A DNA stretch of 64,000 bases, taken from Escherichia coli (GTDB taxonomy: Bacteria; Pseudomonadota; Gammaproteobacteria; Enterobacterales; Enterobacteriaceae). The notes beneath the pieces are model-generated. The model was given only the letters and a program-made list of their open reading frames with translations. It did no database searches and was not told where the DNA came from. Shown in pieces: positions 3,484 through 43,186 of the stretch; position 1 is the first letter of the stretch; every line of letters begins with the position of its first letter. Location: the NCBI RefSeq assembly GCF_016026235.1, contig NZ_CP065613.1; one strand, given 5' to 3'. Both the position numbers and the translations under genes were made by a program.

Positions 3484-4550
3484 CGGGAAAATTTCTGCAG
3501 CAAAGAGAAGTCGCGTGCGACCAGCATCAGCAGGCCCATTAGCATGAGTCCGGGTACTAACCACAAACCAGGAATGAGGGGAATCGCGCCGTTAGCCACC
3601 AGCGTACGGCAGACGTCGCCGCCATAAAAAATGGCAATAAACAGCAACGTCAGTGGCAATAATGTTGAAAATCGCCCTTGCCGCGGTTTTACCCGACTTA
3701 ATGAAATGGCCAGCAGCGCCATCAACAATGCTGTCAGGCCACGGCTTTGCCGCCATTGCAGTTCGGCATGATCGGCAGGAAATACAGAGCGTGCCAGCTC
3801 CGTGACCGATTTTGCTTTGCGTTTGACGTTAGGGCTTTGATCCAGCGGATTCAGATGTAATTGCAGATTACGGTAGATCTGTTCATTGTCGTCACGCCCC
3901 TGATGATCGAGAAGATAGGCAGTGCCGTTGTGCAACATAACGGTCGGTTTCTCGGGTGATGGGTCAACCACATCAACCGAACGGGCGCGGAAAATGCGGG
4001 TTCGATTGGCAGTAGAAGTATAAATCAGCGCGTCAGTCAGGCGATTATTATCCTGATCAACCGTCTGCGAAAGGATCATTCGTCCGTTATCGTTAGTGTT
4101 AAATTTCTTTGCCCGCAACTGGCGAACATCCAGCTCCGACTGCGACTGCTGCTCCAGTTGATAAATCTGCGCATAAGCCCACGGACGACCATACATCGAC
4201 AGAAGGGTGACAAAAATACTTAGCGGTATCGCCAGATAAAGAACGGCTTTGTACAAGCGTCCCGGACTGCCCCCCGCCGCAGAGATAGCGGTAATTTCCG
4301 AGTCGGTATACATCTGCCCTAGCGTCACGCCAACTGACACATACAGACCAACAGGTAACAACATCTCCAGTGCAATCAGCACTTTGTAGAAAACGATATC
4401 CAGCACAACATCAAGAGCTAATGTCCCATTTGCCGCTTCGGTCAGATAACGCTGTGCGGAGTAGCTGGCGAAAATAAAGATCAGAAAACCGACGATAATC
4501 AGCACCAGACGGCGCGTACCACGCATGATGTAGTGTTCAACCAGCTTCAT
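3480..4550 (-). CDS. LptF-like (YjgP/YjgQ family) permease paralog
   Basis: 356-aa ORF; motif LGQMYTDSEITAISAAG resembling the conserved LptF/LptG segment; multi-TM. Confidence 0.7.
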   Translation of the reverse strand: MKLVEHYIMRGTRRLVLIIVGFLIFIFASYSAQRYLTEAANGTLALDVVLDIVFYKVLIALEMLLPVGLYVSVGVTLGQMYTDSEITAISAAGGSPGRLYKAVLYLAIPLSIFVTLLSMYGRPWAYAQIYQLEQQSQSELDVRQLRAKKFNTNDNGRMILSQTVDQDNNRLTDALIYTSTANRTRIFRARSVDVVDPSPEKPTVMLHNGTAYLLDHQGRDDNEQIYRNLQLHLNPLDQSPNVKRKAKSVTELARSVFPADHAELQWRQSRGLTALLMALLAISLSRVKPRQGRFSTLLPLTLLFIAIFYGGDVCRTLVANGAIPLIPGLWLVPGLMLMGLLMLVARDFSLLQKFSR

Positions 4551-4580
4551 CTCACTAACGCCCTCAATCCTTTGAATTTT

Positions 4581-5144
4581 TTATTCATTGATCAGTTTCT
4601 GCGCCAGCGCAATGACATGATCTACCTCTTCCGGCGTCAGGCTGCCGTCCTTTGCCCACTGAATTTGCCCGGTTTTATTCAGCACCAGAATGGTTGAACT
4701 CTGCTCCGGCAAGCGCCAGGCAACGCGTCCCTGTCCATTGCCGTCAATAACGAATTGCGCCCACGGATAGCGGCGTTTATTTTTTTCGATTTTGCCAACG
4801 ACAAAATAGCCAGTACCAAAGATGGCATCATCAGTGTTCACAATGGTGGTGGGCTGAAAACGATCCTGTGGAAAGTTTGCCGCTTCAACCGCTTTAATTA
4901 ACAGTGAGTTCTTCTTCTTCGCTGACTTACGCCCGGCGATATACTGGATAATGCGGACTTTTCCCGCCAATTGTGTGCTGTTCCACTTTTGGTAGTGAAT
5001 TTCGTCGTCGCTATTCAGAAGCAGCTCGCCGCCTTCCTGAATATAAACAGGGGTAACCGTTTTGCCAGTGACGAAATTGTGTGCCTGCACACCCGGGGCT
5101 AAGAGCATGATAATCAGCGCAATAATCAAACGAGATGACATCAT
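4581..5144 (-). CDS. secreted/periplasmic protein of unknown function
   Basis: 187-aa ORF with an N-terminal signal-peptide-like segment (LIIALIIMLLAPGVQA). Confidence 0.5.
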   Translation of the reverse strand: MMSSRLIIALIIMLLAPGVQAHNFVTGKTVTPVYIQEGGELLLNSDDEIHYQKWNSTQLAGKVRIIQYIAGRKSAKKKNSLLIKAVEAANFPQDRFQPTTIVNTDDAIFGTGYFVVGKIEKNKRRYPWAQFVIDGNGQGRVAWRLPEQSSTILVLNKTGQIQWAKDGSLTPEEVDHVIALAQKLINE

Positions 5145-38643: not shown

Positions 38644-40902
38644 TTACTCTTCGCTATCACCGCTGCTGGCACGGCGAGGAGAGTCGATCTCAACACGATC
38701 GATACGCTGCAAACCGCGCATCAACGTACCGCGGCGTCCACGTTCGCCAGTGACTTTCTGTAACTCTTCCGGGCGCAGTTTAATTTTGCGTTTCCCAACA
38801 TGAATGGTCAGCGTGCTTTGCGGCGGCAGAACGTACAATTGCGCCAGACCATCTTCTCCACGCGCGGCTTCTGCCGATGGAATGTTGATAATCTTGTTGC
38901 CTTTGCCCTTCGACAGCTGCGGCAGATCACTTACCGGGAACATCAACATACGGCCTGCCTGAGTGATTGCCAGCAGCATATCGGAAGCATCTTCAATCAC
39001 CACCGGCGGCATAACATGGGCATTTTCCGGTAAGGTGATCAAAGCCTTACCTGCACGGTTACGCGCCACCAGATCGTTAAAGGTGCAGACGAAACCGTAA
39101 CCCGCATCGGAAGCCATCAGCAGTTTCTGATCGTCGCTTTCCATCAGCATATGGTCAACGGTCGCCCCAGGCGGCAACGTTAATTTGCCGGTGAGTGGTT
39201 CGCCCTGACCACGCGCCGACGGCAGCGTAATCGGGTCGATGGCATAGCTACGACCGGTGGAATCAACAAACACTACCGGTTGGTTGCTCTTACCTTTCAC
39301 CGCCGCTTTGAAGCTATCACCCGCTTTATAATTCAGGCCCGGCGCGTCGATATCATGGCCTTTAGCGCTGCGTACCCAGCCCATCTGCGACAGCACAATG
39401 GTGACAGGTTCAGACGGCAGCATGTCGTGCTCGCTCATCGCTTTCGCTTCTTCGCGTTCCTGCAACGGCGAACGACGATCGTCACCGTAGGCTTGCGCGT
39501 CTGCCTGCAGTTCTTTCTTCAGCAGGTTATTCATTTTACGCTCGGAAGCCAAAATGCCCTGCAACTGGTCGCGCTCTTTTTCCAGCTCACTCTGCTCACC
39601 GCGAATCTTCATCTCTTCCAGTTTGGCAAGATGACGCAGTTTCAGTTCGAGGATCGCTTCCGCCTGGGTTTCCGTAAGGCCAAACCGCGACATCAGCGCC
39701 GGTTTCGGTTCATCTTCGTTACGAATGATCTCAATCACTTCGTCGATGTTGAGAAACGCCACCAGCAAACCTTCCAGGATATGCAGGCGCTTGAGGACTT
39801 TCTCCAGACGATAGTTCAGTCGGCGGCGCACGGTATCGCGACGGAACACCAGCCATTCGGAGAGGATTTCCAGCAGGTTTTTCACCGCCGGACGACCATC
39901 CAGACCGATCATATTGAGGTTAATGCGATAGCTCTTTTCCAGATCGGTGGTAGCGAAGAGGTGGTTCATCACCTGATCCATATCCACGCGGTTGGAACGC
40001 GGCACAATCACCAGACGGGTCGGGTTCTCGTGGTCAGATTCATCGCGCAGATCGTCAACCATCGGCAGCTTTTTGTTGCGCATTTGCGCAGCAATTTGCT
40101 CCAGTACGCGCGCACCTGAAACCTGATGCGGTAATGCGCTAATAACCACCGCGCCATCTTCTTTCTTCCACACCGCGCGCATACGCACTGAACCACGTCC
40201 GTTCTCGTAGATTTTACGAATCTCGGCGCGCGAAGTGATAATTTCCGCTTCAGTCGGATAATCCGGCCCCTGCACGATATCCAGCAGCTGATCGAGCGTG
40301 GTTTTCGGCTGGTCGATTAATGCGATTGCCGCCTGAGCTACTTCACGCAGGTTATGCGGTGGAATATCGGTCGCCATGCCGACGGCAATACCGGTGGTGC
40401 CGTTAAGCAAAATGTTTGGCAGACGGGCAGGCAGCATTTTCGGCTCCTGCAAAGTGCCGTCGAAGTTTGGCACCCAGTCAGCCGTCCCCTGCCCCAGCTC
40501 GCTCAATAGCAGCTCGGAATATTTCGACAACCGGGATTCGGTGTAACGCATTGCCGCGAACGATTTCGGATCGTCCGGCGCGCCCCAGTTCCCCTGACCA
40601 TCAACCAGCGGATAACGGTAAGAGAACGGCTGCGCCATCAGGACCATCGCTTCATAACAGGCGCTATCGCCGTGCGGATGGTATTTACCCAGTACGTCAC
40701 CGACGGTACGGGCCGATTTTTTAAATTTGGCGCTGGCATTCAGGCCCAGTTCAGACATCGCATACACAATGCGGCGCTGAACAGGTTTCAGACCATCACC
40801 AATAAACGGCAACGCACGGTCCATGATCACGTACATGGAGTAGTTTAAGTAGGCGTTTTCCGTAAATTCATGTAGCGCAAGGCGCTCTGCCATATCGCTC
40901 AT
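38644..40902 (-). CDS. parC: DNA topoisomerase IV subunit A
   Basis: 752 aa. Confidence 0.95.
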
Positions 40903-41447
40903 TAATTCTGATTCCTCAACTTATTCGCCAGCCTTCAAAGGGGCAATATTGCCGGAGATACTACATTATCTGCCGCGTCGAGTCACAGGAGATCAGCGTG
41001 AATAGCGCCGCCGGACGTGCTCCGACGGCGATAAAGGCATCAATGTGCCTTGATATACAACTCTTTGCTGTAGACTTGATCGGCATAGAGGGCAGCACAA
41101 GGTTGCGCCCATGCCACACCACTCGGCATGGGGGTCCGCTCCGGGCGATTCGAGAAGTTGAGGTTATGCGAGTCCAGGGAAGCCTAAAGCATCAAAGTAG
41201 TCGACTGTAAGTATACGGTTCAGCCCAGTTTAGCTGTGTCTCCACCAGTGCCCCGCGCCTCCTGCCATAAGTGCGGCTTGCTCATGGATACCCCCGAGAC
41301 GGCTTACGGCGCACCGGATAATAAATTTCGCGTATACATGGTATTCCTTACCGGAGAAATTATAAGCCCAACAACAATACGCCTGTGGCATTGTTCGCTC
41401 AAACTTATCGCGAGTGATTTGGCTCACACTCCGGTAAAGATTCCCCA

Positions 41448-41930
41448 TCACGCTAACGGCACATAAACATCCGTTTCCAGTCGCTGCTCTGTCACCCCTT
41501 CGGCAAGATTGGTGTAGTGAAACAGAATCGGTGCTTTACGCATTTTCTCGCCGCTTGCAGGCAGCCAGTGGCGAATAATGCCCCATATCGTGTGTGAAAT
41601 ATCGTCCAGCTCGCCAACGTGGCGGGCCACGGCATAACGTCCACCGGTAAGTTCACCATTGCTCACACCATAACGATTATCGGGAATCGGTTCGCTAACG
41701 CTGCCGCAGATATCAAAGCGAAACGCTTCCGGTGCGGTGGTGGCAGGGTCGTCCCAGGCGACGCCAAAAGTCTGGCTTTGGTTAACAGGAGAAAGCCCCG
41801 TCTCTTTACGCCACATGATAAATTTCGCCACACTGTAGTTGAGCAACTCAGGGCTACAGCGGTGCGGCAACATCGCCACAGGGATTGATGGGAAATCGAT
41901 AATGTTTACATCCAGTGTCAGGTTTGTCAT
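41448..41930 (-). CDS. ygiV: GyrI-like domain transcriptional regulator
   Basis: 160 aa. Confidence 0.8.
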   Translation of the reverse strand: MTNLTLDVNIIDFPSIPVAMLPHRCSPELLNYSVAKFIMWRKETGLSPVNQSQTFGVAWDDPATTAPEAFRFDICGSVSEPIPDNRYGVSNGELTGGRYAVARHVGELDDISHTIWGIIRHWLPASGEKMRKAPILFHYTNLAEGVTEQRLETDVYVPLA

Positions 41931-41982
41931 TTTGCCTCCCTGCGAAATTATTCCCGGGAACGCGTCCCGGGAGCGGTAACAA

Positions 41983-42375
41983 TTACGGATTTACTTTGCG
42001 GATCTGTTTGACGTCAATTTCAACAGAATTCCAGTCTTTATCGACTTCACCCTGAATCTCAACCGTATCTTTCGGCGTCACCGTCACACCGTTCCAGCGT
42101 TTGTGGTCGATATCAACATTGATAGTACCGCTGGCATCTTTAAACACGTAGAGATCGTCAGAGATGCGTTCAACGATATTGCCGCGCAGGGTTACCCAGG
42201 TGTCGTCACGCAGGGATTTTGCGCTTTCTACGGTCGTTACGCTGCCGTTCGGCCCCTGGAATCCTCCGGCCTGACTTTGCGTTGCCGATGGGCCAGAAAA
42301 ACCGCCCTGCTCTGCTGCCATCACCGGTGCGCTGCACAGGGCCATTACTGCGATTACTGCTGCGAATTTTTTCAT
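41983..42375 (-). CDS. ygiW: BOF/YgiW-family periplasmic stress protein
   Basis: 130 aa from MKKFAAVIAV with signal peptide. Confidence 0.8.
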   Translation of the reverse strand: MKKFAAVIAVMALCSAPVMAAEQGGFSGPSATQSQAGGFQGPNGSVTTVESAKSLRDDTWVTLRGNIVERISDDLYVFKDASGTINVDIDHKRWNGVTVTPKDTVEIQGEVDKDWNSVEIDVKQIRKVNP

Positions 42376-42526
42376 GTTTATTACTCCCTTTAATGTCTGT
42401 TTCCGAGCATTTAACAAGATAGTCCTTAACAACTTCTTAAGGGAAAAAAATAAAATTTAGTGCTGTACAGAGCGCGTTACAACACGGTTTACTGGCAGCA
42501 AATACGGTTATCGCAGGGATGAAAAA

Positions 42527-43186
42527 ATGCGAATTTTACTGATAGAAGATGACATGCTGATTGGCGACGGCATCAAAACGGGCCTTAGTAAAATGGGTTT
42601 TAGCGTCGACTGGTTTACACAAGGTCGTCAGGGAAAAGAGGCGCTTTATAGCGCGCCTTATGATGCGGTGATTCTGGATTTAACCTTACCAGGCATGGAT
42701 GGTCGCGATATTTTGCGCGAATGGCGAGAAAAAGGTCAGCGTGAGCCGGTACTGATCCTGACCGCGCGCGATGCGCTGGAGGAACGTGTAGAAGGGCTGC
42801 GTCTGGGAGCTGACGATTATCTGTGTAAACCTTTTGCGTTGATAGAAGTCGCCGCCAGGCTGGAAGCTCTGATGCGCCGAACCAACGGCCAGGCCAGCAA
42901 CGAGCTGCGCCACGGTAACGTCATGCTCGACCCCGGCAAACGTATCGCCACGCTGGCTGGCGAACCCTTAACACTGAAACCAAAAGAATTTGCCCTGCTG
43001 GAATTACTGATGCGTAACGCTGGTCGGGTACTGCCGCGCAAACTGATTGAAGAGAAACTGTATACCTGGGACGAAGAGGTCACCAGTAATGCCGTTGAAG
43101 TGCATGTGCATCATCTGCGACGCAAACTCGGTAGTGATTTTATTCGTACCGTGCATGGTATTGGCTACACATTAGGTGAGAAATGA
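42527..43186 (+). CDS. qseB: two-component response regulator (OmpR family)
   Basis: 219 aa. Confidence 0.9.

Follow-up and report, generated by a model that had tools for sequence, protein, structure and literature searches.

An unoccupied mqsRA site and a group II intron relic within the remains of ygiS between parC and ygiV of Escherichia coli

The spacer between parC and ygiV in the Escherichia coli sequence analysed here (a 64,000-nucleotide stretch of contig NZ_CP065613.1, referred to as the window) is very probably an inert relic of two independent histories: the mqsRA toxin-antitoxin pair was never inserted at this place, and the neighbouring gene ygiS was destroyed in connection with a group II intron, a dead piece of which lies between its two tips. 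The start codon of parC ends at 40902 and the stop codon of ygiV occupies 41448-41450, giving a spacer of 545 bp (40903-41447), the size stated in the preliminary description of this locus. The genes ygiW and qseBC come after ygiV in the window. The following features were identified:

38644-40902, minus strand: parC (DNA topoisomerase IV subunit A), intact, 752 aa, from the ORF list, 100% identity to regions of annotated ParC WP_001281881.1
40903-41039: native spacer between parC and ygiS, 137 bp, the same as in K-12
41040-41075, minus strand: 3' remnant of ygiS, 36 nt, last 11 codons and TGA stop (GTCTACAGCAAAGAGTTGTATATCAAGGCACATTGA)
41076-41078, minus strand: CAA, three nt that mismatch ygiS here, derived either from the 3' exon of the intron or from ygiS nt 97-99
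41079-41311, minus strand: 3'-terminal fragment of a bacterial group II intron, putatively of class C, about 233 nt, with its 3' end (...CUAUGCCGAU) at 41079
41082-41115, minus strand: remnant of intron domain VI, its bulged (branch-point) A at 41086 lying 8 nt before the end of the intron, as judged by aligning and folding five copies
41108-41132: hairpin CCCATGCC / 9 nt / GGCATGGG, perfect 8-bp arms at 41108-41115 and 41125-41132
41119-41148, minus strand: remnant of intron domain V (CGC-triad type), inactivated by four substitutions, -8.9 kcal/mol
41164-41298, minus strand: remnant of the intron-encoded protein, last 44 codons and stop, in-frame TAA at 41230-41232
41312-41317, minus strand: CCGGTG, six nt at the 5' junction with no counterpart in ygiS or in the intron relatives
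41318-41339, minus strand: 5' remnant of ygiS, nt 1-22, ATG (41337-41339) and seven codons (MYTRNLL), now running into an 11-codon ORF ending in TAA
41340-41440, minus strand: native upstream region of ygiS (promoter/5' UTR), identical in ygiS-bearing strains
41441-41445: unoccupied mqsRA insertion site TTCCC, 2 nt downstream of the ygiV stop (GA-TTCCC-CA)
41448-41930, minus strand: ygiV, intact, 160 aa

In K-12, the interval between parC and ygiV holds ygiS, mqsA and mqsR, all on the minus strand; the order given in the preliminary description is correct. The reported absence of these three genes was confirmed by tblastn of the K-12 proteins against the whole 64-kb window, in which YgiS matched with its last 13 aa only (residues 523-535, at 41043-41081) and MqsR and MqsA gave nothing better than E=0.6. 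Blocks were assigned relative to K-12 by sensitive blastn and hand inspection. Positions 40400-41075 correspond to 1-676 of the K-12 region (L001) at 99% and comprise the 5' end of parC, the spacer up to ygiS and the final 36 nt of that gene (99.3% for 40400-41081 against L001 1-682); 41318-41440 correspond to L001 2225-2349 (the first 22 nt of ygiS and about 100 nt of its upstream sequence), and 41446 onward to L001 3277 onward (ygiV). The flanks agree at 99% across parC, its spacer to ygiS, both tips of ygiS, the region upstream of ygiS, and ygiV. The window is without ygiS nt 23-1572 and the 927-bp mqsRA cassette, whereas K-12 is without the intron fragment and the TTCCC pentamer. There are two separate differences, the replacement of the ygiS body and the absence of the mqsRA block, and since the start of ygiS and about 100 nt of its upstream sequence lie between them they are therefore taken as separate events. 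Alignment with K-12, suggested earlier as a means of locating the indel boundaries and any scars or direct repeats, did define the boundaries; the ends of the K-12 mqsRA cassette show no terminal direct or inverted repeats and no target duplication, only the known operator palindromes. The four ORFs of the spacer (53-76 aa) have no Pfam match, and PGAP places no annotation in the spacer of genomes with the same sequence. The earlier account of the spacer as non-coding DNA devoid of a convincing ORF is upheld to this extent, although it passed over both ends of ygiS and the intron fragment.

The K-12 mqsR-mqsA cassette (L001 2350-3276, comprising the mqsA terminator, mqsA, mqsR, and the mqsR promoter and operators) stands where the window has the 5 nt TTCCC. 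No part of this segment aligned to the window, where neither mqsR, mqsA nor the upstream operator palindromes of the module (ACCT..AGGT) were found. O157:H7 has the same TTCCC sequence, and E. albertii, E. whittamii and a third Escherichia lineage (L010) have a near-identical one. In one representative genome of each of these three outgroups, the order is ygiW-ygiV-ygiS-parC, ygiS is intact, MqsR and MqsA are absent, and the ygiS-ygiV spacers align base for base with those of the window and O157:H7 across the TTCCC site. By these alignments TTCCC is shown to be the ancestral empty site, into which mqsRA was never inserted in the window lineage. Because the outgroups carry the empty site, the mqsRA of K-12-type strains is a derived insertion and the presence of ygiS without mqsRA is the ancestral state; K-12-type strains later gained the 927-bp cassette (promoter, both genes and terminator) with replacement of TTCCC. 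It has been described that chromosomal toxin-antitoxin modules are viewed as horizontally acquired cassettes (Ramisetty & Santhosh 2016, cited in PMC5120126 and PMC6918082), and the derived mqsRA insertion is consistent with this view. Like the horizontally acquired type II cassettes as they are treated in those two papers, K-12 mqsRA is a promoter-to-terminator unit at an intergenic site beside core genes, present in 42% of genomes; the window differs in that the site is unoccupied and holds no cassette.

That the junction varies between strains, as had been suspected, is borne out by a survey of 5426 complete E. coli genomes. Three states of the locus, with an identical mqsRA boundary, cover all but about three of them (5422 of about 5425; E. 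coli AST85 is among the exceptions). The full K-12 arrangement with ygiS and mqsRA was found in 2298 genomes (42%), ygiS without mqsRA at the same junction in 1755 (32%; e.g. O157:H7 and O25b:H4), and the window type in 1369 (25%). The 1755 genomes with ygiS, no mqsRA and exactly the same mqsRA boundary contradict the proposal that ygiS, mqsR and mqsA are present or absent as one module. The two differences instead have opposite polarity, mqsRA being a derived insertion in K-12-type strains and ygiS an ancestral gene lost here.

The gene ygiS encodes a periplasmic ABC substrate-binding protein in an ORF of 535 codons. In the window no intact ORF remains, only nt 1-22 and the last 36 nt, and the 1.5-kb body is replaced by about 240 nt (41076-41317). 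Comparison with other members of the genus shows ygiS to be ancestral to it, and the window type is the ancestral state minus ygiS only, with ygiS as a pseudogene stump in its ancestral position and orientation. The suggestion that the spacer might be a degraded remnant of the three genes is thus right for the two tips of ygiS, while no remnant of mqsRA is present. At the 3' junction, the GAT of the intron is followed by CAA and then by GTCTACAGC (ygiS), where every intact ygiS allele reads GATTATGTCTACAGC. The position of CAA is TAT in all intact ygiS alleles, and CAA is therefore not local ygiS sequence. Its interpretation as an allelic variant of ygiS was rejected, as eight of the eight intact or partial alleles examined read GATTATGTC. 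It was likewise rejected that the 221-233 nt between the stumps are diverged ygiS, for which the best internal similarity is 36 nt at 76% (E=0.42), against strong homology to an intron.

The intron fragment shows 91-92% DNA identity to copies on E. coli plasmids and 74% to the introns of Polaromonas JS666. Comparison of 41076-41320 with plasmids also gave matches of about 74% on plasmids of Polaromonas, Cupriavidus, Rhizobium and Sinorhizobium, and the genes under these matches are annotated as ltrA, group II intron reverse transcriptase/maturase. The minus strand of the window encodes ...LGGIHEQAALMAGGAGHWWRHS, a stop, TGLNRILTVDYFDALGFPGLA and a further stop; this protein tail matches residues 413-455 of the 456-aa Polaromonas LtrA (BLASTP E=1e-19) and the C-terminus of the frameshifted intron ORF of pHum4b (E=1e-23). 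The 3' terminus ...GCCGAT (window 41079) is common to all six copies compared, while homology to the relatives reaches 41303-41311 and no further, so that the fragment represents roughly the last 12% of an intron of about 1.9 kb, in the same orientation as ygiS. The sequence GGTGCGCC at 41309-41316 (minus strand) was considered as an intron 5' end and rejected, translation and alignment showing that the piece is the intron 3' end. Domain V of such introns is a helix of about 30-34 nt with a 2-nt bulge, a tetraloop and a catalytic triad; in the window its upper and lower stems are broken and it folds at -8.9 kcal/mol, compared with -19 to -21 in four relatives. It is homologous but non-functional. 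The domain VI helix is retained, with the A at 41086 unpaired 8 nt from the end, where such introns have a bulged branch point 7-8 nt from the 3' splice site, and with a 3' AY (terminus ...GCCGAU). No 5' GUGYG and no domains I-IV were found, and the reverse transcriptase and maturase (X) domains of the protein encoded in domain IV are missing, the remnant giving no Pfam match. Without domains I-IV, most of the protein and a working domain V, the fragment would be unable to splice or move. An Rfam scan of 40000-42600 at E<=1 returned no match, RF00029 and D1-D4 included, because domain V has decayed by four substitutions.

In relatives of the fragment, as seen by alignment and folding of five copies including the window, domain V is canonical: its 30-nt helix carries a bulge of 2 nt, a loop of 4 nt and a CGC triad, with compensatory changes among the relatives (CCCGG/CCGGG, CCUGG/CCAGG, CCGGG/CCCGG). 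Their domain VI has a bulged A. Their 456-aa protein has RVT_1 and GIIM domains, that is RT and X domains only; they also have a GTGCG 5' end and Rfam D1-D4 matches (RF02001/RF01998), and one matches Intron_gpII (domains V-VI) at 35.6 bits, under the 40-bit gathering score. Directly upstream of full-length relatives lies a hairpin followed by AGGATGT. Class C (IIC) introns are characterised by a CGC-type domain V triad, by a protein that lacks an endonuclease domain and by insertion directly behind a stem-loop. The full-length introns of Polaromonas sp. JS666 plasmid 2 and of E. coli plasmid pHum4b resemble the window fragment in their protein tail, CGC-triad domain V, domain VI and terminus CUAUGCCGAU. 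They differ in being about 1.9 kb long, with a 5' GUGCG, domains I-IV, and RT and maturase, and in following hairpin+AGGATGT, whereas the window holds the last 12% or so in mutated form. The pHum4b copy (L004 4001-5813) is the closest full-length relative (91%); its protein is split into at least two ORFs (RT 4560-4931, maturase 4088-4507), and this intron is probably inactive too. On JS666 plasmid 2 (L005 1613-5332), two related introns stand in direct tandem, the 3' GCCGAT of one abutting the 5' GTGCGCC of the next, immediately downstream of tnpB and hairpin+AGGATGT; the pHum4b copy has the same 5'-exon motif in front of it. On E. coli plasmid p1-H9 (L016 2501-2634), a 135-nt piece of a related intron, 84% identical to the window fragment, abuts the 3' end of a plasmid-borne bcsC beside IS3 transposases. 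Fragments of the p1-H9 type occur on about 200 other E. coli plasmids and are widespread on those of IncHI1B type.

The element itself has been catalogued previously. Tables S2/S3 of Leclercq & Cordaux 2012 (PMC3522654) list E.c.F12 as a chromosomal class C group II intron fragment in the B1 E. coli strains IAI1, SE11, E24377A and 55989 and in Shigella sonnei, boydii and flexneri, and the class C label used here is the one listed there. The IAI1 coordinates of E.c.F12 (3251207-3251324) were verified to lie between parC and ygiV and to equal window 41079-41196. Its entries in those tables give a length of 118 bp and 79% to P.s.I1, with neither a location nor a host gene; in this analysis it is extended to about 233 nt, related more closely to E. 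coli plasmid copies (91-92%) and placed between two ygiS stumps. No report was found in a literature search on ygiS together with group II introns. An empty toxin-antitoxin site and an intron relic are known biology and a catalogued polymorphism; the detail that the relic marks the destruction of ygiS appears to be unreported.

A single deletion of about 3.1 kb, removing the ygiS-mqsA-mqsR block from a K-12-like ancestor and leaving plain non-coding DNA, would agree with the presence of all three genes in K-12 and of none in the window. Such an event is scarcely credible: the start of ygiS and some 100 nt upstream of it separate the two differences, ygiS is found without mqsRA in 1755 genomes, outgroups without mqsRA carry ygiS and the same empty site, and 233 nt of the spacer are foreign intron sequence. 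It is very probable that ygiS was destroyed, in an ancestor with ygiS and without mqsRA, by an event that involved a group II intron, putatively of class C. By the preferred route, the intron would have entered ygiS on its sense strand, perhaps at nt 96/97, the place of CAAGTCT in the gene. One later deletion would then have removed about 1.65 kb of the intron 5' part together with ygiS nt 23-96, and another ygiS nt 104-1570 between two GTCT microhomologies. CAAGTCT is native at ygiS nt 97-103, and in five of six related intron copies, whose flanks are otherwise unrelated, the 3' exon begins with CAA (CAAGT in the Polaromonas copy). Both observations lend support to an insertion site at nt 96/97; against it, a 7-mer match in a 1.6-kb gene has a probability of about 0.1 by chance.

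It is also quite possible, if rather less than evenly so, that ygiS was lost in one step, through illegitimate microhomology-mediated joining of about 240 bp of intron-bearing DNA (from a plasmid or IS), or of a partial cDNA of unspliced intron RNA, into a break in ygiS. This joining would have been accompanied by a 1.5-kb deletion of ygiS and would have brought in the intron's own 3' exon CAA or CAAGT, with no retrohoming into ygiS. One event suffices for such a capture, compared with three for insertion followed by deletions. CAA mismatches ygiS in every intact allele and yet equals the 3' exon of the five related copies (CAAGT in Polaromonas), and the six nt CCGGTG (41312-41317) at the other junction, which insertion followed by deletions leaves unexplained, match nothing, like filler DNA. 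Related fragments are abundant on E. coli plasmids (197 plasmid places). The ygiS nt 96/97 site lacks the hairpin+AGGATGT 5'-exon motif of full-length relatives, and no intermediate, either a full-length intron in ygiS or an intron followed by ygiS nt 97 onward, was present in the 5426 complete genomes; chromosomal copies of the fragment are essentially all of the short form. The intron 3' end joined to ygiS nt 97-111 gave 0 matches in one exact-match metagenome scan run without a positive control. Against capture, the fragment stops precisely 3-5 nt past the 3' end of the intron and is oriented like the ygiS sense strand, neither of which random capture predicts; CAAGTCT is also native to ygiS; and the closest known copies are just 91-92% identical with different flanks, so that no donor is found among them. 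With modest confidence, insertion followed by two deletions appears slightly favoured over one-step capture, the two being close.

No function is expected of the spacer relic; the retained ygiS promoter would drive at most the 11-codon ORF (MYTRNLLSGAP and stop). The hairpin recorded in the preliminary description does exist, with perfect 8-bp arms and a 9-nt loop; about 0.2 such hairpins per 545 bp are expected by chance (an estimate). Its arms belong to different intron domains, one to the 3' strand of the mutated domain V and the other to the 5' strand of domain VI. In intact relatives the sequence at this place is CGCATGCC...GGCAGGGG, which has no such pairing, the perfect hairpin having resulted from two substitutions relative to intact introns. 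It is an accidental pairing, neither a junction scar nor a regulatory element. Co-option of the hairpin or intron remnant as a small RNA, as a barrier to transcription that separates parC from the ygiS promoter, or as a protein-binding site is very unlikely. The ygiS promoter region has been kept and points through the fragment toward parC, the fragment is retained in 1369 genomes in two haplotypes, and the hairpin became perfect through the two substitutions. However, there is no Rfam match, the fold of 41070-41165 is no better than shuffles (z = -0.33), and a promoter and terminator scan of the spacer gave nothing above shuffles and no terminator-like T-run. The second haplotype also has 11 differences within the fragment (about 4.5% over a 245-bp query), one of which, G41131C, breaks the hairpin, as neutral decay predicts. 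Its divergence is consistent with neutral drift or decay.

Loss of ygiS was also seen outside the window type. E. coli AST85 (NZ_AP043644.1; L008 6001-6337) has a separate and different ygiS deletion, with a parC-ygiV spacer of 337 bp that contains YgiS residues 513-535 only and no intron fragment, annotated by PGAP as a partial pseudogene. Two non-coli strains, Escherichia sp. MOD1-EC7003 (L009 6553-6922) and E1V33 (L011 3713-4140), have an internally deleted ygiS. Both keep residues 452-535, and thus have a common breakpoint, while their upstream remnants differ; the breakpoint could reflect shared ancestry, recombination or a deletion hotspot. As ygiS has decayed differently in the window type, AST85, MOD1-EC7003 and E1V33, it has therefore been lost at least three or four times in Escherichia, a detail that appears to be unreported.

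YgiS promotes deoxycholate import, according to work summarised in PMC6918082, and a role of MqsR in protection from bile, through cleavage of ygiS mRNA, has been proposed, a claim that the same paper disputes. All ygiS losses seen are in mqsRA-free backgrounds, and the independent events are few (the window type, AST85 and the two other Escherichia lineages). It is doubtful that recurrent loss of ygiS is adaptive, with mqsRA-free lineages gaining bile tolerance by deleting ygiS outright; if so, the three locus states would be functionally linked alternatives. The recurrence gives a hint that ygiS can be dispensed with repeatedly. Roughly one in four sequenced E. coli, including O111, O121 and other B1 strains, and several Shigella as listed in PMC3522654, are without both mqsRA and ygiS. 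Findings from K-12 on MqsR/MqsA or on YgiS-dependent bile sensitivity are not transferable to strains of the window type. The ancestral empty site backs the horizontal acquisition of mqsRA, a classic chromosomal toxin-antitoxin system, and the locus illustrates cleanly how a group II intron relic can mark the destruction of a gene within a core-genome region; beyond correct annotation its relevance is small.

The second haplotype of the short locus was examined in strain DG342-2 (L003). Relative to window 39700-40800 (the 5' half of parC) it carries 8-16 substitutions per 100 bp, and beyond ygiV just 0-4 per 100 bp. It appears that a segment comprising parC and the spacer was imported by recombination.
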